Made by a program: the position numbers and the translations under genes. The notes beneath the pieces are model-generated. The model ran no database searches. It was not told the origin of the DNA and saw only the letters and a program-made list of their open reading frames with translations. DNA of 64,000 nucleotides, taken from contig CAMWHE010000004.1 of NCBI GenBank assembly GCA_947173955.1, positions 6,513 to 70,512 of the forward strand, written 5' to 3'. Numbering within the stretch: the stretch's first letter is position 1; every line of letters starts with the position of its first letter. Shown here in pieces: positions 3,806 to 33,339 of this stretch. This DNA is from an uncultured Bacteroidales bacterium. Lineage in GTDB: Bacteria; Bacteroidota; Bacteroidia; Bacteroidales; Muribaculaceae.

Positions 3806-4480
3806 ATGGAAGTTGTCTACGAGGATAATCACATCATAATCGTCAATAAGGCTCCGGGCGAGATAGTGCAGGGAGACAAGACCGGCGACACTCCGCTGAG
3901 CGAGACTGTTGCTCAATGGATCAAAGAGAAATACGGTAAACCGGGAAATGTGTTTCTCGGAGTGGTACACCGCCTGGACCGACCGGTAGGTGGCCTGGTA
4001 GTATTTGCCAAGACATCGAAAGCACTGACAAGGCTAAACGAGATGTTCCGCAACGGGGATGTTCATAAAACCTACTGGGCCATCAGCCGTAACAAGCCGC
4101 CGAAAGAGGAGGACACGCTGACCCACTACATCACGACGACCGAGAAGAACAATAAATCGTATGCATCGGCGACTCCACGCGCCGGAGCGAAGGAGGCCCG
4201 GCTACACTACAGGCATCTGTCGTCGACAGACCGTTACCATCTGATCGAGGTCAACCTGCTGACCGGCCGCAAACACCAGATTCGCGTACAGCTGGCGGCT
4301 ATAGGGTGTCCGATCAAAGGAGATCTGAAATATGGCGACAAGCGGAGTAATCCGGACGGCAGCATATCGCTGCTGGCACGGCATATCGAGTTTATTCACC
4401 CTGTTTCGGGCAAGGAGATTTCGGTAACAGCACCTGTACCGGCCGACGACAATTTGTGGAACGCACTTTCAGCTCAATAA
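3806..4480 (+). CDS. RluA-family RNA pseudouridine synthase
   Basis: Contains the catalytic motif HRLDRPVGGLVVFAKT and GRKHQIRVQLA. Confidence 0.85.
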   Translation: MEVVYEDNHIIIVNKAPGEIVQGDKTGDTPLSETVAQWIKEKYGKPGNVFLGVVHRLDRPVGGLVVFAKTSKALTRLNEMFRNGDVHKTYWAISRNKPPKEEDTLTHYITTTEKNNKSYASATPRAGAKEARLHYRHLSSTDRYHLIEVNLLTGRKHQIRVQLAAIGCPIKGDLKYGDKRSNPDGSISLLARHIEFIHPVSGKEISVTAPVPADDNLWNALSAQ

Positions 4481-5531: not shown

Positions 5532-8015
5532 TTAATTGCCATTACCTCCTCCGGCAGCGGGACGAGAAGTATCGAGGTCGTCGTTGGATGCCGCACGGGA
5601 GGCCTTCTTCACATAGGCGTTGAGTGAGCCGAAACGATAGTTGATGGATATGCCGACCATAAAGCGGTTATAGCTGTAATTGACAGATTTACCGGTGCGG
5701 CCGCCATTCATGTACTCCGACTTCCATGTTGTCGTATAGGGACCGAACGGATTGCTGATAAATAGGGTCGTTGTCAGGCGATCCTCCTTAAGGAAGTTGC
5801 GGGTAAGCTGAAGTCCGTGGTTGATATTTGAGGGGGTGAAGATATTTTTACTGTAAAGGCTGCTGAACCCGTTGTACCATCCATAGACAGTCAGTCCGAG
5901 CGTCAGCTTCCAGGGAAGCTCCTGTGAAAAACGGGTGTACATATTCGCGCCCCATCCGGACTCGCTCAGTTCGGGATTAAGAGCATCGGCGGCATACCGG
6001 ATAGAGCTATGAGATACGCCGAAATTCATCATCCAGTTGGTCTTCTGGCTGATCATCCAGCGAAAATAACCGTTAAGATTGAACCGACGGCTCTGGCCTA
6101 TATTTTCAGATGTCGAATACATGATGTCATCCTGGATCCAGTTGACGGAGTGTACGCCTGTATTGCTCATGCGGTAAGACATCGAGAAATCGGCATTGAA
6201 TTTCGGCTTGATTATATTATAATTGAGCGAGATAGTGTGGTAAAGGGCGCTTGACAAGTTGGGATTACCATAGCTGACTGAAGTAGGAGTCTCAACAACA
6301 GTAGGATTGAGTTCGTCAATGCCCGGGCGGCTGATACGTGTGTTGTAGGACAGCTTGATTGTGTTGGCGTCATTTATAGTATAGTTGACGGCAGCCATCG
6401 GCACCCAGTCGCTGAGATTGGAAGCGAAATTGTTGCCGGCCTCTACCTTATCCTTTGATGTAAGACGGGAGAACTCATAACGGAGACCTGCGCGGAGAGT
6501 GACCTTTCCGAACTTAGAACGCCAGTCGAAGTAGGCGGCGCCGATAGATGTGCGGTGGGTATATTTTGTGGGAATGAGCGAATCTTCGGGCTTACCCACA
6601 TATTCGCGCTCACCTTTGGCATTGTTGTCGCGGAATATGAATTTACCGCCGAGGTCGAATTTATGATTGTCGTTGATAGGGCGCGTCCAGTCGAGCTGAC
6701 CGGTATGCTCCATAAATCGGGAGTGATCCCAGGCATTGATACCGGAGTAGTCGAACAGTGGATTTATCATATTCTCATACTCCGATTCAGAATCATTGTC
6801 AGAGCCGTTGGTGGAAATCATGTAGGAGAGTGTGATCATTTCGTTGGGACGGCGTGTAAGACGCTGATAATTGAATGACCCGTTGAAATCCATATAGCTA
6901 TATTTCGACTTAAAGTCATTGTTATCAAACGAATATATTAGATTACCGGCAGGATCATACATGGCTGATGTGCTCTTGGAGGGATTGTCGGAGCCATAAG
7001 TATAGCCACCGAACTCAGCCGTAAACAGGTTGAGGGAGTCCATCTCATAGCTCATCTCAAACTGGACGTAGCCGCCATTGCCGGATGACCGGCGCCAGTT
7101 GGTCTCAGATGACGAGACAAGACGATTGCCGTTGCTGTCATAGGTCATGTCGGACTCCGTGCGGCTCTTGTAGACGCGCCCGGTATTGCCGAAATAACCG
7201 CCGTTGACAGAGAAAGTCACCTTGTCAATCTGCGATGTGATCCAGACAAACGGCTGAGGGATAGGATTGTTTGTACCCATCCATAACCCCACCGAGCCCA
7301 TGACACCGCGGATAGCCGTATTCTGCATCGTAACAATATTGAGAATAGCACCGACACCCTCGGCATCCTCGCGGGCTCCGGGATCGGTGATAACTTCAAT
7401 TTTCTTAATAGTAGAAGCGGGAATAGCCTTGAATATATCCTTGGCATTATTGGTAAACGAACTGTTGGGACGGCCGTTCTTATAGATTTTGAAGTCGGAA
7501 GATCCGTTGACCTTGATTGTGCCGTCGGCCTCAACAGATACGAGAGGTACTTTCCTGAGAATCTCGTTGACAGTCGATGTCTTTGAATCATTGTCGGCCT
7601 GCACATCATATCCGATGCGGTCAATTTCCTTAGTCACAAGCGGACGCTGAGCCGAGACAGTCACTTCCGCCAGCATATTTTCAGCATCTGAAATGATTAT
7701 ATCGCCGAGGGAGGCGACGGGGGAGGCGACACTAACTGAAAAATCGACAACCGATACGGACTTTCCGACCGCCACGGCAGAAAGCCGGTAGCTACCTGCC
7801 GAAGGAAGCGTAAGGGAGAAATCGCCTTCATCGGAGGATGTAGCGAGGACTACAGGTTTTATAGTATCAGTTTCTGTAAAAATGCGGAGAGTGGCAAAGG
7901 GTTCTGTCTCGCCTGTCTGAGATATCAGCCGGCCGTTGACGCTAAAGTCGTCGGCCAGCATCAGGAGCGCCGAGAAAAGGTAGATCGATAACCAGAAAAT
8001 ACGCTTTAAAAACAT
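5532..8015 (-). CDS. Outer membrane beta-barrel family protein (TonB-dependent-receptor-like) with an N-terminal carboxypeptidase-regulatory-like domain
   Basis: 827 aa with a signal peptide, an N-terminal CarbopepD-like segment (FSVNGRL...TLRIF), a plug-like region (TVSAQRP..KEIDRIGYDV), and a barrel ending in an aromatic-rich terminal strand. Confidence 0.8.
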   Translation of the reverse strand: MFLKRIFWLSIYLFSALLMLADDFSVNGRLISQTGETEPFATLRIFTETDTIKPVVLATSSDEGDFSLTLPSAGSYRLSAVAVGKSVSVVDFSVSVASPVASLGDIIISDAENMLAEVTVSAQRPLVTKEIDRIGYDVQADNDSKTSTVNEILRKVPLVSVEADGTIKVNGSSDFKIYKNGRPNSSFTNNAKDIFKAIPASTIKKIEVITDPGAREDAEGVGAILNIVTMQNTAIRGVMGSVGLWMGTNNPIPQPFVWITSQIDKVTFSVNGGYFGNTGRVYKSRTESDMTYDSNGNRLVSSSETNWRRSSGNGGYVQFEMSYEMDSLNLFTAEFGGYTYGSDNPSKSTSAMYDPAGNLIYSFDNNDFKSKYSYMDFNGSFNYQRLTRRPNEMITLSYMISTNGSDNDSESEYENMINPLFDYSGINAWDHSRFMEHTGQLDWTRPINDNHKFDLGGKFIFRDNNAKGEREYVGKPEDSLIPTKYTHRTSIGAAYFDWRSKFGKVTLRAGLRYEFSRLTSKDKVEAGNNFASNLSDWVPMAAVNYTINDANTIKLSYNTRISRPGIDELNPTVVETPTSVSYGNPNLSSALYHTISLNYNIIKPKFNADFSMSYRMSNTGVHSVNWIQDDIMYSTSENIGQSRRFNLNGYFRWMISQKTNWMMNFGVSHSSIRYAADALNPELSESGWGANMYTRFSQELPWKLTLGLTVYGWYNGFSSLYSKNIFTPSNINHGLQLTRNFLKEDRLTTTLFISNPFGPYTTTWKSEYMNGGRTGKSVNYSYNRFMVGISINYRFGSLNAYVKKASRAASNDDLDTSRPAAGGGNGN

Positions 8016-27468: not shown

Positions 27469-27789
27469 ATGACTACTGAAAAGCGACTTGAACTGGAAGA
27501 GAAAGTTATCGCGATACTCCGCACGGTCTACGATCCGGAGGTGCCGGTCGACATCTATTCTCTCGGACTGATATATAAAATCGATATCGACGATGACGCA
27601 AACCTTACTGTCGACATGACCATGACGGCGCCCAACTGCCCGATGGCCGACTTCATAGTAGACGACGCGCGCTATAAGCTCGAATCGATCGAAGGTCTTA
27701 AAAGTGTCACCATCAATATCGTCTTTGAGCCTGTATGGACTCAGGACATGATGAGCGAGGAAGCCAAACTTGAACTCGGATTTCTTTAA
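27469..27789 (+). CDS. DUF59 / SufT-like Fe-S cluster assembly protein
   Basis: Contains VYDPEVPVDIYSLGLIY...TMTAPNCPMA, the typical DUF59 motif with its conserved Cys. Confidence 0.8.
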   Translation: MTTEKRLELEEKVIAILRTVYDPEVPVDIYSLGLIYKIDIDDDANLTVDMTMTAPNCPMADFIVDDARYKLESIEGLKSVTINIVFEPVWTQDMMSEEAKLELGFL

Positions 27790-28576
27790 CCATCCCTACC
27801 CCGCCGTAGCCGTGCGCAAAGCAGTCTATTTCATATCCGACCTCCATCTTGGGGCGACTTATCTCGACGATCCGCTGCAATATGAGCGCCGGGTAGTCAG
27901 ATGGTTGCGGTCGATCGAGGAGGATGCGGCCGAGCTATATCTGCTCGGCGACATCCTCGACTACTGGTATGAATACCGCACGGTAGTGCCCCGCGGCTAC
28001 ACACGATTTCTCGGTCAGCTCGGCATGATGGCCGACGCGGGGGTCAAAATCACATGGATAATCGGCAATCACGACATATGGATCAACGACTATCTGCCTG
28101 AGGAACTCGGCATAACGGTAGTCGACGGCACGATAATCAAAGAGATCCTCGGCAAGCGCTTTTTCCTTGCCCACGGAGACGCCCTCGGCAAGCTGCCGCG
28201 AGGATTCCGGTTTATCAGATGGATGTTCCGCAACAAATTCCTTCAGCACCTCTACTCGGCCGTACATCCCCGATGGACGGTGCCGTTCGCTCACCGCTGG
28301 TCAGCCCATTCGCGCAACTTTTCTGAGGAAATTCCACAATTTGCCGGTCCGGACAAAGAGCCTTTCGTAGCATTCTCAGAAGAGTATCAGCGCGACCACC
28401 CTGATCAGGCGATAGACTTCTTCGTCTTGGGACACAGGCACATACTGCTCGACTATCCCCTCACACACGGTGGCCGACTGATAGTGCTCGGCGACTGGAT
28501 CCATCATTTTTCCTACGGAAAATGGGACAGCAAAAATTTCATTTTGCAATGCTTCGATGACAAATTGAATCCGTAA
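27770..28576 (+). CDS. lpxH: UDP-2,3-diacylglucosamine diphosphatase
   Basis: Metallophosphoesterase motifs FISDLHLG, GDILD, GNHD and GHRH are present. The listed TTG start at 27770 overlaps the previous gene. An in-frame GTG at 27812 (MRKAVYFISDLHLG) is an equally plausible start. Confidence 0.85.
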   Translation: MNSDFFNHPYPAVAVRKAVYFISDLHLGATYLDDPLQYERRVVRWLRSIEEDAAELYLLGDILDYWYEYRTVVPRGYTRFLGQLGMMADAGVKITWIIGNHDIWINDYLPEELGITVVDGTIIKEILGKRFFLAHGDALGKLPRGFRFIRWMFRNKFLQHLYSAVHPRWTVPFAHRWSAHSRNFSEEIPQFAGPDKEPFVAFSEEYQRDHPDQAIDFFVLGHRHILLDYPLTHGGRLIVLGDWIHHFSYGKWDSKNFILQCFDDKLNP

Positions 28577-28810
28577 CTACTGATATTAACAATATTTCAC
28601 ATTTATCACTATCGCCCCACGAAAATTTTCATAATATTGATATATAGCATTTTAACCCACATACATAGATTAAAAACAGGTTGAGTGATTAAAAACTATG
28701 TTAGAAAACATGTTTTTTTATTTGGCAGCGTAAGAAAAAAGGGCAACCTTTGCATCACAAACCTATAACAATCTTTTTTACCTTAGAAATTGTACCTATT
28801 GGAAACCTAT

Positions 28811-28841
28811 AAAAAGGGACTTCGTGATGAAGTCCCTTTTT
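28811..28841. terminator. Strong bidirectional terminator hairpin
   Basis: 12-bp stem AAAAAGGGACTT / AAGTCCCTTTTT with a 7-nt loop and A/T runs on both sides. Confidence 0.7.
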
Positions 28842-28937
28842 ATGTTATCAGCCGGAAGAAGCTTCCTCATGTTCATATTCTGATGTGTATTGCTCGCACA
28901 TGCTCTGCAAGTGCGATAGGGGTAAGAAAAATGCAAC

Positions 28938-29279
28938 GTGGGGGCTCACCTTTGGCTTAACCGCCACGCTACTATGCCGACACCTGCCCGGCAGGTGTCT
29001 CTACTTTGTCTCCTCGCCCCTGGCGGATGGAAATGCGGAATAGCTATAATCGGCGTCCCGAAGAGGGACGCCCTGAGAGAGCTGCGACAGGTACCGGGCA
29101 CATCTCGCTACGCTCGATGTACCGCGGCTACTGTAAATCGGCGCTCTCTTCGGAGCGCCACATGGCGACTGAAAGATATCAGTAACTGCAATCGGATTGC
29201 ACGATATCGCGTTGCCGACGCTCATTTTCGCCATACTTCCCTGCTCCCCAGACACTGACGTACGCCTGAGGTTGCCCAC
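28938..29279 (+). other. GC-rich, hairpin-dense non-coding block (possible structured RNA or recombination-site arm), family unknown
   Basis: It contrasts sharply in composition with its AT-rich surroundings. Stems: 28979-28999 (9 bp), 29052-29072 (8 bp), 29080-29086/29123-29129 (7 bp with one U.G), 29140-29159 (7 bp), and a nested 29164-29216 stem with one G.U. The wobble pairs only work on the + strand. The two ORFs across it do not look like proteins. Confidence 0.35.
28977..29040 (+). repeat. 64-bp direct repeat, copy A
   Basis: Matches 31139-31202 at 56 of 64 positions with no indels. It contains the hairpin GACACCTGC-CCG-GCAGGTGTC. Confidence 0.9.
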
Positions 29280-29397
29280 AATAACGCGCCTTTATGACGT
29301 TTGACCTCATATTATTTTCGCAACCATCATCTTTTTACATCGACCCACTTTTTGCTTGTTGGGACAAAAATCGTATCTTTACGAAAATATAATCAAT

Positions 29398-29742
29398 ATG
29401 GAATCTCAGTATATCGAAATAGACCCGAACGATAAAATTATATGCGTGAATATCAGCAGCTCTTTTGATAAAAAAGAACGTGCAGATAATTATGATCGGG
29501 CACGGCATTATTGGAAAGTTTCACCTAAAAGAGCTAATAATGCTAATCTTGTATTGGCTACCGCACATGGAATAGTAATAGCTGTATTCAAGCCGTTCAA
29601 ATGGTATCAGACAAACTCCATCAAATACCCGGGAAGATATGAATTTGATGGCGAAGAAGTAAAAGATTCACCATATTTAGGAAAATGTATATGGAATGTA
29701 GTCAACAAACATACAGTCTCCATTGCTTATATAAACTTGTAA
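29398..29742 (+). CDS. Hypothetical small protein (114 aa) in the low-GC cassette
   Basis: The ORF starts MESQYIEIDPNDK.... The start is the ATG at 29398, preceded by the ATCTTTACGAAAA motif. I recognise no family. Confidence 0.55.
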   Translation: MESQYIEIDPNDKIICVNISSSFDKKERADNYDRARHYWKVSPKRANNANLVLATAHGIVIAVFKPFKWYQTNSIKYPGRYEFDGEEVKDSPYLGKCIWNVVNKHTVSIAYINL

Positions 29743-29956
29743 CAAGGAAAATTTCACCGTACTAAACACGTACTGTTAAGACACCAAACATGATAATATG
29801 AGTATGGTCTACGATCTTTACGAAAACTCCAATATGCCCAAGTGTTTGCTGTTATAAAAAATAGTGGAATTGGGATATCTATATCACACGATCAAAAATT
29901 AGCATTAGGGGCGATCGGGAAAAAGCTCCAAGCTGTTTTGGGCAAAAAAGAATAGT

Positions 29957-31069
29957 ATGACAAAAATTCTCTCTCAAAATTACAGCTATGCCAATAATTC
30001 GAGCAATGAACTTATAAAAGTTTCTACTGCTCAGCGTAATGAAAAATATTTTTGTCCTGTATGCGGCGAACTTATGATCCCTCATATGGGAAAAATTCGA
30101 CGTTGGCATTTCGTTCATAAAAACACAGAAAACTGTTCATATGAATCATATCTCCATCTGTTAGCGAAATTCAAGATAAGAGAGACTTTTCTTAAATCCG
30201 AGCATTTTCTGCTTTCATATAAAGCAAAAGCACTTTGTTCTCATGAGTGCCCTTTTATCACTTCTCCCAAATGCGAAGATGAAAAACCTGTTCAATTCGA
30301 TTTGCGTAGATACTATGATAAATGCGAGATAGAAGCTTCCTATTATCAATACCGAGCTGACTTACTATTATCCTCTTCTACAAACTCTAATCGACCACCT
30401 GTGTTAATTGAAATTAGGGTTACACATAAATGTACTGAAGACAAAATTAATAGTGGTGCTCGTATTATTGAAATCCCAATTCAATCTGAAGAACAAATTG
30501 ATCATATTGTTGAAAGCGGCAAATTAAAAGCAGTAAGAGCTAATCAATTTAGCCATTTAGACGAAAATAAAATAACCTTATACAATTTCAATAAAATAGA
30601 ATCTTTTGATCCGATTGGATCATTCGATGAAGACGAAGAGTATTTTAGTCGAAAGAATACAATTGTATTTTGGCTGAATCAACAAGGCAAATTCTGCTCA
30701 TTTGATTGTCACTGTTACGAAGTTCGTGACAAACTACCACCAAATGTTCATTATTATATAACCCAAATTGCGACCCCATTCAAAGAGATTTTTCAAGAAT
30801 TCTCTAAGCGAGGAGTAAAAATTCGTAATTGTTTCTTATGCAAGTTTAGTAAACAAGACTATTGGGGCGACTGGATTTGCATTCTATATAAGAGACTTAG
30901 TTTACCACGTAAGCCTTCTCCATATAGCGCTACATCATGTTCCAATTACATGGAAAATTTTATGACTTCGCAAAATGCGGTATCAATTGCACACCCTCAA
31001 AATACGGAACAATCTGATTCTACTCCCCCCTGTAAGTTCTATTACCATATATGTGAGGATATACTATGA
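29957..31069 (+). CDS. CoiA-like zinc-ribbon / PD-(D/E)xK-type nuclease family protein with a Cys-rich C-terminal extension
   Basis: The N-terminus YFCPVCGELMIPHMGKIRRWHFVHKNTENCSYESYLHLLAK parallels the CoiA pattern CPxCG...HFAH....C...SE.H. YRADLLL...VLIEIRVTH parallels the D...E.Q.S core. The C-terminal half has several Cys clusters of unknown family. Confidence 0.6.
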   Translation: MTKILSQNYSYANNSSNELIKVSTAQRNEKYFCPVCGELMIPHMGKIRRWHFVHKNTENCSYESYLHLLAKFKIRETFLKSEHFLLSYKAKALCSHECPFITSPKCEDEKPVQFDLRRYYDKCEIEASYYQYRADLLLSSSTNSNRPPVLIEIRVTHKCTEDKINSGARIIEIPIQSEEQIDHIVESGKLKAVRANQFSHLDENKITLYNFNKIESFDPIGSFDEDEEYFSRKNTIVFWLNQQGKFCSFDCHCYEVRDKLPPNVHYYITQIATPFKEIFQEFSKRGVKIRNCFLCKFSKQDYWGDWICILYKRLSLPRKPSPYSATSCSNYMENFMTSQNAVSIAHPQNTEQSDSTPPCKFYYHICEDIL

Positions 31070-31138: not shown

Positions 31139-31202
31139 CCGACACCTGCCGAGCAGGTGTCTCTCCTCTGTCTCCTCTCCCGTGGGGGATGGAAATGCGA
31201 AA
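31139..31202 (+). repeat. 64-bp direct repeat, copy B, abutting the msrAB stop codon
   Basis: See copy A. The offset is exactly 2162 bp. The hairpin stem is conserved and two of the differences fall in its loop (CCG versus CGA). Confidence 0.9.
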
Positions 31203-31203
31203 A

Positions 31204-32154
31204 TTAGTGGGAGGGGGTGACGAGGGGGATGAAGGAGGCGTAGCCGGCGGAGGCCATTTCTTCGAGGGGAATGAACCGGAGGGCTGCGGAGTTGATACAG
31301 TAGCGGAGGCCACCGGTCTCGACGGGGCCGTCGGGGAATACATGACCGAGATGGGAGTCGGCGCGGGCTGAGCGTACCTCGGTGCGATGGCGCCCATAGC
31401 TGTGATCGTCGTGCTCGGTCAGCAGAGACGTGTCGATCGGACGGCTGAATGCGGGCCATCCGCACCCGGAATCATATTTGTCGGATGAGACAAAGAGAGG
31501 GGTGCCGTCAACGATATCGACGTAGATGCCGGGACGGAATTCATGGTCATATTCGTTGATAAACGGTCGTTCGGTGGCACTGTTCTGTGTCACCTCCCAC
31601 TGAAGCGGGGTCAGACGTTGACGCAGCTGCTCGCGGCTTTCGGTTTTGGCAGACTTTTTCATCTCTCTGACCTCCTTGAAAAGAGCCGGATTGACATGGC
31701 AGTAGCCGTCGGGATTCTTTACGAGATAGTCCTGATGATAGTCCTCGGCAGGATAAAAGTTTTTCAAGGGGAGAAATTCGACAGCGAGCGGTTCGGTGTG
31801 GCGACGCTGCAGGGTAGCGAGCTCGGCCTCAATGACCGGGACATCGGTAGGGTCAGTATAGTAGATGCCTGTGCGATACTGCGTACCGGTATCATTGCCC
31901 TGACGGTTGAGTGACAGTGGATCGATGCTACGGAAATAGATGCGCAGGATTGTCGACAATCCGATTTCCTCAGGGTCATAATCGACTTTGACAGTCTCGG
32001 CCGCGTGGGTCAGCCCGGTGCAGACTTGCTGATATGTGGGCGAGGGAATCAGGCTGTTGGCATAGCCCGCAGTGGCTTTGTCGACTCCGGGAATCAGCGA
32101 CATCAGGTGAGCGGTACCCCAGAAGCATCCGCCGGCAAGGTATATCGTCTTCAT
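31204..32154 (-). CDS. msrAB: Bifunctional peptide-methionine (S)/(R)-S-oxide reductase MsrA-MsrB fusion
   Basis: The N-terminus carries GGCFWG (MsrA). The C-terminus carries CGWPAF and [11 protein letters not shown] (MsrB). Confidence 0.92.
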
Positions 32155-32157
32155 TTG

Positions 32158-33339
32158 TTAAATCTTTATGTAAATCTTACGTCGATAGAGGAAGTAGCCA
32201 GGAATCCAGTTGACAAACACGAACAGGATAGCCCACAGGCATGAAGCGAGCTGAGCGTCACCGCCTGTCAGCGGATTGAGAACTGTATAATAGAAAGCCC
32301 CTTTGAGCGAGGTGACTCCGCCGGGAGCAGCACCGCATCCGACGATGATATCCGACAAAAGATAGGCGAGGACTGCACTCTGAACGTAGAGGTAGAGCGG
32401 ATTGACGCCGAAAGCATGGAAGAACGGAGTCCAGCGCTTCCATCCCTTGACATCGATTATCCAAATAAGGAGGGCGAGGAGACTTGAGGCCATACCACAG
32501 GTAGTGAGTACGAATGTCGGCGACCATACCTTCTTGTTTAGGGGCAGACCATAGCAGAGAAGGAGTCCGCAGAAGGTCATGACGGCGCCGATAATGAAGA
32601 GCTTGTTGAGCATCTCGTCCCGGGAAGCGGCTTTACAGATGATACCACCGCAAAGGAAACCGATGAGCATATGAGCGATAGAGGGAAGAGTGCTGACGAG
32701 TCCTTCCGGATCGAATATAAACGGTTCGCCGAAAGCGCGGTCGGTGTACATATGGGCATCGCCGATGACGCTGCGGTCGATACGGGCAAGTATGTTGGTG
32801 TCACCATAGACAAATCCATCGCCGAATATCAGCAGCAGAGCATACCCGACAAGGAATGTCGCAATAAGCCACGGAAGGACACGATGCTTTACGGTCACGG
32901 CAAGGAGCGCTCCGATACCATAGCAGATACCCAGGCGGGGAAACACGCCGAGGATACGGATTCGGTCGAATGTCATTGTGGCCTCGGCAAGCGTCTTGCC
33001 ATCGACCAACAGGCCTTTGAGCCACATTGAAAACCATGCCAGACCGAGACCGATAAGCCATATAAGCAGGGCCCGGCGGATTATCTTCGTGACAACAGGA
33101 CGCGTGGGACGAAACTCGGTCTTGCGTAGCGACAGATAGGTCGACACACCCATGATAAACATGAAGAATGGAAAGACCAGATCGGTCGGCGTAAGGCCGT
33201 TCCATGCGGCATGACGCAGAGGCGTATAGGCCTTGGCCCATGTGCCCGCATTGTTGACAAGAATCATGCCGGCAATAGTCAAGCCGCGCATAATGTCGAG
33301 AGCCAACAGGCGCTGATTAGTTTTGGCGATAGATGTCAT
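32158..33339 (-). CDS. Heparan-alpha-glucosaminide N-acetyltransferase-like membrane acyltransferase (DUF1624/DUF5009)
   Basis: The N-terminus RLLALDIMRGLTIAGMILVNN is typical of this family, and the protein is polytopic. Confidence 0.7.
   Translation of the reverse strand: MTSIAKTNQRLLALDIMRGLTIAGMILVNNAGTWAKAYTPLRHAAWNGLTPTDLVFPFFMFIMGVSTYLSLRKTEFRPTRPVVTKIIRRALLIWLIGLGLAWFSMWLKGLLVDGKTLAEATMTFDRIRILGVFPRLGICYGIGALLAVTVKHRVLPWLIATFLVGYALLLIFGDGFVYGDTNILARIDRSVIGDAHMYTDRAFGEPFIFDPEGLVSTLPSIAHMLIGFLCGGIICKAASRDEMLNKLFIIGAVMTFCGLLLCYGLPLNKKVWSPTFVLTTCGMASSLLALLIWIIDVKGWKRWTPFFHAFGVNPLYLYVQSAVLAYLLSDIIVGCGAAPGGVTSLKGAFYYTVLNPLTGGDAQLASCLWAILFVFVNWIPGYFLYRRKIYIKI

Follow-up and report, generated by a model that had tools for sequence, protein, structure and literature searches.

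A free-standing homologue of the CMoRE/PD-T4-3 sensing domain next to a predicted CoiA_N nuclease: a candidate split, type IV-like defence module in a Muribaculaceae genome

CMoRE/PD-T4-3 is a type IV restriction enzyme whose C-terminal domain binds 5-hydroxymethyl-dCTP (5hm-dCTP) and recognises DNA containing 5-hydroxymethylcytosine (5hmC) or glucosyl-5hmC (PMC12923530). All 274 systems analysed in that work are single-component, and no homologues of the C-terminal domain are reported there. A Capnocytophaga homologue of CMoRE/PD-T4-3 acts on the DNA of phage Mu, which bears a modified adenine (PMC12366544). Here we describe two neighbouring open reading frames (ORFs), ORF A and ORF B, in a 64,000-nucleotide (nt) stretch of DNA from the metagenome-assembled genome of an uncultured gut Bacteroidales bacterium of the family Muribaculaceae (GCA_947173955.1, contig CAMWHE010000004.1, positions 6,513 to 70,512 of the forward strand); the whole stretch is called the window below, and coordinates are counted from its first letter. 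Judging from sequence and predicted structure, ORF A is a free-standing, predicted modified-base sensor of the CMoRE lineage, while ORF B is, very probably, a CoiA-related nuclease with a zinc ribbon, outside the CoiA family in the strict sense.

CoiA has the active-site variant PD-EXQ (PMC1189080) and has been described as characteristic of Bacillota (10.1101/2024.02.06.579203). PD-lambda-4B is a validated component of a two-gene anti-phage system of Escherichia coli; in the supplementary entries concerned, its sole recognisable feature is the CoiA N-terminal zinc ribbon, matched by HHpred at residues 1–66, and the entries just before it, taken here as those of the partner PD-lambda-4A, include AAA_19 matches (PMC9519451). 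Stand-alone EVE readers are encoded beside restriction systems and are predicted to supply specificity (PMC7641849).

We read ORF A and ORF B as a recently assembled split, type IV-like sensor-plus-nuclease module for anti-phage defence, a tentative reading to which we assign a probability of about 0.4. ORF A would bind hypermodified invading DNA and would direct or license ORF B to cut it. ORF B would be a DNA endonuclease combining a CoiA-type zinc ribbon, a PD-(D/E)xK-like core, and a C-terminal 4-Cys zinc module. Host DNA would be spared because it is unmodified, and a methyltransferase would not be needed. The assembly would be recent, ORF A together with its promoter region having displaced most of a lipoprotein gene that preceded ORF B.

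Families and predicted folds of ORF A and ORF B

A first-pass annotation of the window, made from the letters without database searches, had proposed the two ORFs as a candidate defence or homing module. Both were found where it had placed them, ORF A with 114 amino acids (aa) and ORF B with 370 aa (coordinates in Table 1).

ORF A had been considered unrecognisable; this description is superseded, since the protein was placed as a homologue of the CMoRE/PD-T4-3 sensing domain. Among the PADLOC models, PD-T4-3 was matched with E 3e-12, residues 7–88 of ORF A falling on profile positions 130–208 of 256, and PHROG 5356 was matched with the same partial coverage (E 4e-12). The profile of ORF A homologues, searched against PDB, found the PD-T4-3/CMoRE chains 9u7u and 9u7z (E 7.5e-12). 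The AlphaFold2 model of ORF A (predicted local distance difference test score, pLDDT, of 92.7) was matched by Foldseek to 9U7Z, 9U75, and 9U7U with template modelling (TM) scores of 0.73–0.75, E about 1e-6, and a probability of 1.0. The next-ranked structures, the EVE (VcaM4I), YTH, ASCH, and SRA readers, were below significance (E ≥ 0.1). The motif YD.[AV]R..W[KR]....RA..A..[VI]LAT..GIV..V[FY]...W is common to ORF A and CMoRE/PD-T4-3.

No GIY-YIG nuclease domain was matched in ORF A, the DNA 5' of it is non-coding and GC-rich, and no helix-turn-helix (HTH) was found in the protein. A profile search gave a family of 119 clusters from Bacteroidota and some Proteobacteria, almost all of them free-standing proteins of 109–132 aa. 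The ratio of nonsynonymous to synonymous substitution rates (dN/dS) of ORF A against its homologues was 0.09–0.13. Because the family is free-standing, uniform in length, and under purifying selection, ORF A was taken as a stand-alone sensor and not as a gene fragment; its origin as a decayed piece of a full-length CMoRE was rejected on the same grounds. By homology with the sensing domain, ORF A would bind modified DNA. No close viral relatives of it were found in IMG/VR contigs.

ORF B was 100% identical to a protein of GCA_029051115.1 (contig JAIDLL010000025.1). The motifs quoted for it at first pass were all present: C33-P-V-C36-G, H51-F-V-H54, C60-S-Y-E63-S-Y-L-H67, D135, and E152-I-R-V-T-H157. 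The Pfam family CoiA_N (PF25164) was matched at residues 23–62 with E 1.2e-11 and 44.4 bits against a cut-off of 26.3. The zinc-ribbon ligands C33, C36, H51, and H54 were invariant over 48 distant relatives, and each of the 48 matched CoiA_N. In contrast, the CoiA nuclease domain PF06054 was not matched by ORF B even at E ≤ 10, nor by any of the 48 diverse relatives, nor by 5 further ones, including four plasmid genes named "competence protein CoiA family protein" by NCBI. A link of ORF B to PF06054 through such PGAP-named "CoiA family" plasmid genes was rejected, as CoiA_N was their sole match. The earlier assignment to the CoiA family thus holds for the N-terminal ribbon and not for the nuclease domain.

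The ribbon in common with CoiA and the NCBI name carried by some relatives would agree with ORF B being a Bacteroidota counterpart of CoiA that resolves D-loops in natural transformation. We consider this hardly probable at all, given that PF06054 was unmatched by ORF B, the 48 relatives, and the plasmid genes so named, and that ORF B has the motif E-I-x-V-T-H and not the PD-EXQ of CoiA (PMC1189080). Moreover, ORF B lies in an acquired AT-rich islet, its family is patchily distributed on mobile elements and plasmids, and no competence genes were found near it, whereas CoiA is characteristic of Bacillota (10.1101/2024.02.06.579203).

Beyond the zinc ribbon, C60, E63, Y65, H67, K71, C94, and C106, as well as E126, D135, E152, H157, K163, and E172, were invariant or nearly so in distant ORF B relatives. 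The putative core holds E63, E126, D135, E152, H157, K163, and E172 together with the conserved C60, C94, and C106. In the AlphaFold2 model (pLDDT 82.9, predicted TM score 0.71), a helix at residues 62–80 is followed by strands at 85–94, 107–115, 122–129, 132–139, and 149–154, a helix at 161–164, and a strand at 169–174. The long helix carries E63, two consecutive strands carry D135 and E152, and the short helix after them carries K163. This modelled alpha-beta-beta-beta-alpha-beta order and the residues E63, E126, D135, E152, and K163 are what one would expect of a PD-(D/E)xK core. Among relatives, the third position of the "E-I-x" motif varies, so K163 would be a migrated lysine. The restriction-endonuclease-like fold proposed at first pass is supported in part: the order of secondary structure and the invariant acids and lysine fit, while no solved structure was matched significantly (best E 0.02). 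From this pattern we infer that ORF B is catalytically active as a nuclease.

The Cys clusters noted at first pass (C248/C251/C253, C292/C295...C308, C328, and C359/C366) were also present. C292, C295, and C328 were invariant and C308 nearly so over distant relatives; this 4-Cys module presumably binds zinc, and it is visible as well in the 391-aa protein of locus L009, discussed below, and in locus L058. The clusters CSFDCHC and CKFYYHIC were conserved among close relatives only. The C-terminal domain (about residues 200–370) matched no known family in Pfam or among PDB sequences, in agreement with the first pass.

A word-indexed search for ORF B homologues gave 106 clusters, mostly of 360–390 aa. 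With an exhaustive profile search, the number of representatives rose to 7,951 at E ≤ 1e-3, of which 1,047 reached E ≤ 1e-30, the family size of about 8,000 being a count of clusters at 50% identity; the best 150 of the 7,951 matches were mostly 330–370 aa long and aligned over nearly the full length. The dN/dS of ORF B against homologues was about 0.10 (0.09–0.13 over both ORFs). With 119 clusters of ORF A homologues and these 106 or 7,951 of ORF B, as well as purifying selection on both, the two ORFs are real genes. No close viral relatives of ORF B were found in IMG/VR contigs.

Evidence on the coupling of the two genes

Partner genes of ORF A relatives are located on the same strand, usually 0–100 nt away, and include nucleases of different folds (Table 1). 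The PDDEXK_4 partner is a 413-aa protein matching the PADLOC candidate PDC-S26 with E 9e-88 (loci L082–L091, e.g., L082 4001–5671), and the PLD-family partner in L068, L069, L073, and L077 is a 387-aa, RE_NgoFVII-like protein. Pairs of an ORF A relative with either of these nucleases look like split sensor-plus-nuclease modules. The loci of ORF A relatives also hold integrases, relaxases, restriction-modification (R-M) genes, GmrSD, and Schlafen-like ATPases, and were therefore regarded as mobile elements and defence islands. With relatives in such settings, the defence role suggested at first pass is plausible.

In L074 (2614–5952) an ORF A relative is directly followed by a PAD_porph-like gene and a SIR2_2 protein gene, and in L076 (3998–6521), as also in L075, directly by two radical-SAM genes; the ORF A-type sensor may feed effectors besides nucleases. 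The 310-aa neighbour of the ORF A relative in L010 and the PDDEXK_4 neighbour were both rejected as relatives of ORF B (hhalign probabilities of 0.1% and 0.2%, respectively).

A second adjacency of the two families was found in locus L009, where the gene for a 391-aa distant relative of ORF B is followed, 97 nt further on, by an ORF A homologue (71% identical), in reversed gene order. The 391-aa protein matched CoiA_N with E 2.5e-4 and the ORF B profile with an hhalign probability of 95% (E 2e-8); it aligned with ORF B at the zinc ribbon, at the E/D/E/K positions, and at the C-terminal Cys module. As the gene order is reversed and the nucleases are at most 25% identical, L009 was treated as an independent association. 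Among the genes in the flanks of the fetched loci, several hundred in all, there was no other of CoiA_N type, which makes two adjacent cases among about 16 ORF A neighbour slots unlikely by chance (rough P about 0.003). ORF A also occupies the partner position that is usual in the two-gene units of the ORF B family. On the strength of L009 and the other nuclease neighbours of ORF A, we infer that A and B may be physically or functionally coupled.

The window itself preserves traces of how the two genes came together. ORF A lies upstream of ORF B on the same strand, 214 nt away, and no terminator was predicted between them. Between them, the end of a lipoprotein gene has survived as a relic; in the closest relatives of ORF B an intact lipoprotein gene of about 150 aa is located directly upstream (1–4 nt from the ORF B homologue in L013, L014, L016, L017, L019, and L023, and 87 nt in L004). 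At the DNA level, the window is homologous to 11 other ORF B loci from 29846 onwards, while its homology to other ORF A loci is limited to 29392–29743. Because the homology is split in this way, the islet is a mosaic in which ORF A has replaced most of the lipoprotein gene. The upstream edge of homology varies among ORF B loci (29846, 29898, 29913, and 29951), which indicates repeated rearrangement just upstream of ORF B.

The same traces would be left by a chance juxtaposition, in which deletion or recombination brought together two independent defence-type or selfish genes; ORF B would then act alone or have lost its partner, and ORF A would be an orphan or act solo, for example by binding and blocking modified DNA, if the two genes work at all. 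Besides the relic, the mosaic homology, and the shifting edges, such an account agrees with the absence of ORF A from all other ORF B loci and with the many different neighbours of ORF A. Against it stand the second, independent adjacency of distant homologues in L009, the common strand without a predicted terminator, and the state of the locus in a second sample (L078, ERZ14208426). In L078 the arrangement of the window recurs at 98.5% identity with both genes intact, despite a shrinking spacer: 78 nt (29780–29857) have been deleted at a CTGTTA microhomology, removing the second copy of a 13-nt repeat, ATCTTTACGAAAA (29375 and 29814), and eroding the relic further. We regard chance juxtaposition, the main rival reading, as possible, if somewhat doubtful.

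Several observations weigh against the reading of ORF A and ORF B as a functional module. About 60 other loci of the ORF B family were searched by tblastn and by a hidden Markov model scan of six-frame translations, and neither detected a relative of ORF A; ORF B therefore does not need ORF A, and the idea of a conserved two-gene cassette, put forward at first pass, has to be given up, the more so with a lipoprotein relic in the spacer. The two genes are 214 nt apart, with this pseudogene relic between them, whereas between an ORF A relative and its downstream partner there is usually an overlap or almost no gap, so that the adjacency could be a by-product of rearrangement. L078 is the same locus and not an independent occurrence, which leaves the distant homologues in L009 as thin evidence of co-occurrence elsewhere. 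Proximity to a nuclease is a weak argument alone, defence islands being rich in nucleases, and a single sensor would need physical coupling to four or five unrelated nuclease folds. Some neighbours of ORF A relatives are not nucleases (PAD_porph plus SIR2_2, the two radical-SAM genes, and nrdDG). As for ORF B itself, no nuclease domain was matched in Pfam, and Foldseek with the full-length model found nothing in PDB at E ≤ 1e-3. The best structure was SfsA (E 0.02), followed by weaker matches to Can2, SwaI, and NucC; the ORF B profile found only chance zinc-finger matches among PDB sequences. In favour of ORF B as a nuclease candidate we count the weak PDB matches and those to viral models (BFVD): nine of the latter were obtained at E ≤ 1e-3, including a phage "Competence protein" (E 1.1e-5), and several PD-(D/E)XK proteins of the same set gave E 0.03–0.6. 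The A+B pair is rare and not generally conserved.

A broader version of the proposal would treat ORF A-family sensors as trans-acting specificity subunits that can be combined with PLD, PDDEXK_4, EEP, and CoiA_N-type nucleases in a modular form of type IV restriction, the CoiA_N family as partner-swapping defence effectors, and the window as a recent assembly of the two; we regard this generalisation as rather unlikely. What the ORF A family does show is the CMoRE sensing domain as an independent small protein, repeatedly beside nucleases of different folds. If the pairs cooperate, sensor and effector genes can be exchanged to build modification-dependent restriction. Type IV systems would then have to be sought more widely, and compact readers of modified DNA would become available as tools.

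The islet and the partners of ORF B homologues

The islet is located between an lpxH-like gene (27770–28576) and msrAB, past the 3' end of the latter. The G+C content was 0.31–0.36 over ORF A and ORF B against 0.53–0.59 in the flanks. Direct repeats of 64 nt, 88% identical, bracket a unit of 2,162 bp; two copies were found in the 64-kb window against a chance expectation of 0, and with this copy number a genome-wide element of the repetitive extragenic palindromic type was rejected. The repeats enclose a GC-rich block of 260 nt, whose predicted folding is stronger than that of shuffled controls, most clearly for the minus strand (-148.7 kcal/mol, z -4.4; plus strand, z -2.7). The picture drawn at first pass, of AT-rich ORFs between direct repeats beside a structured block, is in these respects accurate. 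The block carries hairpins with CUUCGG and GAAG loops, and the 3' end of a minus-strand transcript would coincide with the 64-nt repeat. It had no match in Rfam at E ≤ 1. DNA resembling it was absent from the fetched loci, plasmids, and viral contigs except for the near-identical L078. The block is part of the inserted unit, without association to either gene family elsewhere, and may be an element-borne non-coding RNA or a recombination site.

Within the 2,162-bp unit, no recombinase was found, and no methyltransferase is encoded in the islet. A weak candidate for a Bacteroidetes-type -7 promoter box was identified upstream of ORF A by a pattern search with a consensus that we take to be TAnnTTTG; a sigma-70 promoter scan is uninformative for Bacteroidota. 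Tentatively, the 2.16-kb AT-rich unit can be regarded as a horizontally acquired mini defence islet made of two genes from separately mobile families.

A small nuclease gene in an AT-rich insert with flanking direct repeats, belonging to a family present at many unrelated genomic positions, would also suit a selfish homing cassette, with ORF B as a homing endonuclease that copies itself and ORF A into cognate sites. This found no support and is highly improbable: the insert is intergenic, past the 3' end of msrAB, and involves no intron, intein, or conserved host gene; relatives of ORF B are located in operons with regulators, helicases, and lipoproteins or on mobilisable elements, the close Muribaculaceae ones adjoining MobV-type relaxases and AbiH; and close relatives are absent from viral contigs. 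Neither an empty insertion site nor a pair of occupied and empty alleles was found, the exact msrAB protein being present only on the window's own contig.

Two features lie close to the islet. Directly to its left, at 28637–28843 (+), the Bacteroides small RNA family BTnc060 (RF04184) was matched with 57 bits (E 3e-7), the gathering score of 229 being far above this; the match ends in a perfect 15-bp terminator-like hairpin (28809–28843). An HGSNAT-like acyltransferase gene (32158–33339) has an orthologue (52–53% identity) in the Muribaculaceae loci L041 and L047 (7952–9125), about 2 kb downstream of distant ORF B homologues (about 30% identity). The chromosomal neighbourhood with the HGSNAT-like gene may be a recurrent landing zone.

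Genes of the ORF B family are habitually found in two-gene units with a variable partner directly up- or downstream (Table 1). The XRE-HTH partner of about 160 aa has its HTH at the C-terminus and an uncharacterised N-terminal half (L029, L030, L034, L035, L038–L044, L047, L050, and L055); with the ORF B homologue it forms a pair of regulator and nuclease that recurs. Three loci have a 136-aa HTH_17-like gene that shares 8 nt with the ORF B homologue, and in L005 and L006 the homologue is preceded by a Mrr_cat plus Peptidase_M78 (ImmA/IrrE-like) gene. Tightly coupled upstream HTH or ImmA/IrrE-like genes are typical antitoxin or controller arrangements, and these three kinds of partner would suit a toxin-antitoxin or abortive infection system in which ORF B is a toxic nuclease and ORF A holds the position of antitoxin or regulator. 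However, no HTH is present in ORF A, whose homology is to a sensor of DNA modification and to no antitoxin, and which lies 214 nt away. An XRE gene in upstream position could just as well be the transcriptional controller of a restriction nuclease, and a lipoprotein, the partner in the closest relatives, is hardly to be expected as an antitoxin. In addition, ORF B has stayed intact here although its partner gene was destroyed, which argues against strict antitoxin dependence. We consider this explanation quite improbable.

In L005, direct repeats of 300 nt (4000–4299 and 7270–7569, 93% identical), each inside a full-length Exo_endo_phos gene, enclose the Mrr_cat/Peptidase_M78 gene and the ORF B homologue. 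The arrangement echoes the repeat-flanked islet of the window and looks like an insertion between, or a duplication of, the target gene.

The helicase pair consists of an ORF B-family gene of 284–325 aa and a gene of about 690 aa for a UvrD/GajB-like helicase, forming an operon with a 4-nt overlap (L057–L063 and L079). It was found on the E. coli plasmid pKH457-3-BE (L079, 5076–7966) and in marine gammaproteobacteria, in some cases beside type I R-M genes. A tblastn search with the N-terminal half of ORF B gave 797 plasmids, mostly conjugative and enterobacterial. No PADLOC model matched the helicase-paired nuclease, and the pair is a candidate plasmid-borne two-gene system, possibly akin to PD-lambda-4. 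The ORF B family as a whole is very large and uncharacterised; it is associated with mobile elements, occurs commonly on conjugative plasmids of enterobacteria, and is a good candidate for a new family of defence effectors.

Table 1. Features of the islet in the window and genes found beside relatives of ORF A and ORF B.
Feature	Position	Strand	Basis or remark
Left 64-nt direct repeat	28977..29040	.	Contains hairpin GACACCTGCCCGGCAGGTGTC; left edge of the 2,162-bp unit
GC-rich non-coding block, predicted to be highly structured	29041..29300	.	G+C content about 0.50-0.53
Candidate Bacteroidetes-type -7 promoter box TATCTTTA	29374..29381	+	Pattern search; 24 nt 5' of the ORF A start; weak
ORF A, 114 aa, free-standing homologue of the CMoRE/PD-T4-3 C-terminal modification-sensing domain	29398..29742	+	
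Lipoprotein-gene relic, last 38 codons and stop	29839..29955	+	tblastn, 68% identity, E 7e-11
ORF B, 370 aa, predicted CoiA_N zinc-ribbon nuclease-family member	29957..31069	+	
CoiA-type C2H2 zinc ribbon, ORF B residues 23-62 (C33, C36, H51, H54)	30023..30142	+	PF25164
Putative PD-(D/E)xK-like core, ORF B residues 63-175	30143..30481	+	Invariant columns; AlphaFold2 secondary structure
C-terminal 4-Cys module, ORF B residues 291-328 (C292, C295, C308, C328)	30827..30940	+	Conservation
Right 64-nt direct repeat	31139..31202	.	Adjoins the msrAB stop codon (msrAB, 31204-32154, minus strand)
XRE-HTH protein, about 160 aa, partner of ORF B homologues	1-15 nt upstream		14 Bacteroidota loci
Lipoprotein, partner of ORF B homologues	Mostly 1-4 nt upstream		11 loci
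UvrD/GajB-like helicase, partner of ORF B homologues	Downstream, mostly 4-nt overlap		8 loci
PLD nuclease	Beside ORF A relatives		L068, L069, L073, L077
PDDEXK_4 nuclease, strong match to PADLOC candidate PDC-S26	Beside ORF A relatives		At least 10 contigs
EEP nuclease and RecD2-like helicase	Beside ORF A relatives		L007, L008
310-aa protein, weak HNH match	Beside ORF A relatives		L010-L012
PAD_porph and SIR2_2	Beside ORF A relative		L074
Two radical-SAM genes	Beside ORF A relatives		L075, L076

Comparison with known systems

ORF A resembles the sensing domain of CMoRE/PD-T4-3 in sequence and in predicted fold (PDB 9U7U, 9U7Z, and 9U75). The difference lies in the architecture: CMoRE/PD-T4-3 is one polypeptide with an N-terminal GIYxY-YIG nuclease, whereas ORF A, with its 114 aa, has no nuclease domain, and the predicted nuclease encoded beside it, ORF B, is of an unrelated fold. 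The earlier study of CMoRE dealt with single polypeptides and reported no homologues of the domain (PMC12923530); against this, 119 clusters of free-standing homologues were found here. ORF A is also comparable with EVE and ASCH (PUA-like) readers as a small, free-standing, predicted reader of modified bases next to nuclease or restriction genes. It belongs, however, to the lineage of the CMoRE sensor; its PUA-like resemblance is below significance, and the partner nucleases differ.

The architecture of CoiA (PF25164, PF06054, and a C-terminal region) is partly repeated in ORF B, which has CoiA_N, a predicted PD-(D/E)xK-type core, and a long uncharacterised C-terminal region. Unlike CoiA, ORF B lacks PF06054 and has E-I-x-V-T-H with the downstream invariant K163 instead of PD-EXQ; it possesses an additional 4-Cys C-terminal module, comes from Bacteroidota and mobile elements, and has no link to competence.

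The pairing of AAA_19 with a CoiA ribbon that the supplementary entries suggest for PD-lambda-4 resembles the plasmid pairs of an ORF B-family protein and a UvrD-like helicase. The PADLOC models of PD-lambda-4, in contrast, matched neither ORF B nor its relatives, and the homology shown here is that of the zinc ribbon. Among all PADLOC v2 models, including PD-lambda-4 and DruB of Druantia, ORF B matched only DruB (E 0.01), at residues 13–56 of the zinc ribbon; its relatives gave no match or the same weak one. PDC-S26 (PDDEXK_4) accompanies an ORF A relative in at least 10 contigs, which supports the sensor-plus-nuclease pattern; it does not occur in the window and shows no relationship to ORF B (hhalign probability 0.2%).

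As the first-pass annotation had supposed, the composition of the pair corresponds to no described system: no named system in PADLOC matched it, and the combination of a free-standing, predicted CMoRE-type sensor with a CoiA_N nuclease is without a match among named systems. ORF A, a candidate reader, and ORF B, a candidate nuclease, are neighbours on one strand, and the islet encodes no methyltransferase; if the two are coupled, this would correspond to type IV restriction. The pair is best filed under modification-dependent restriction.

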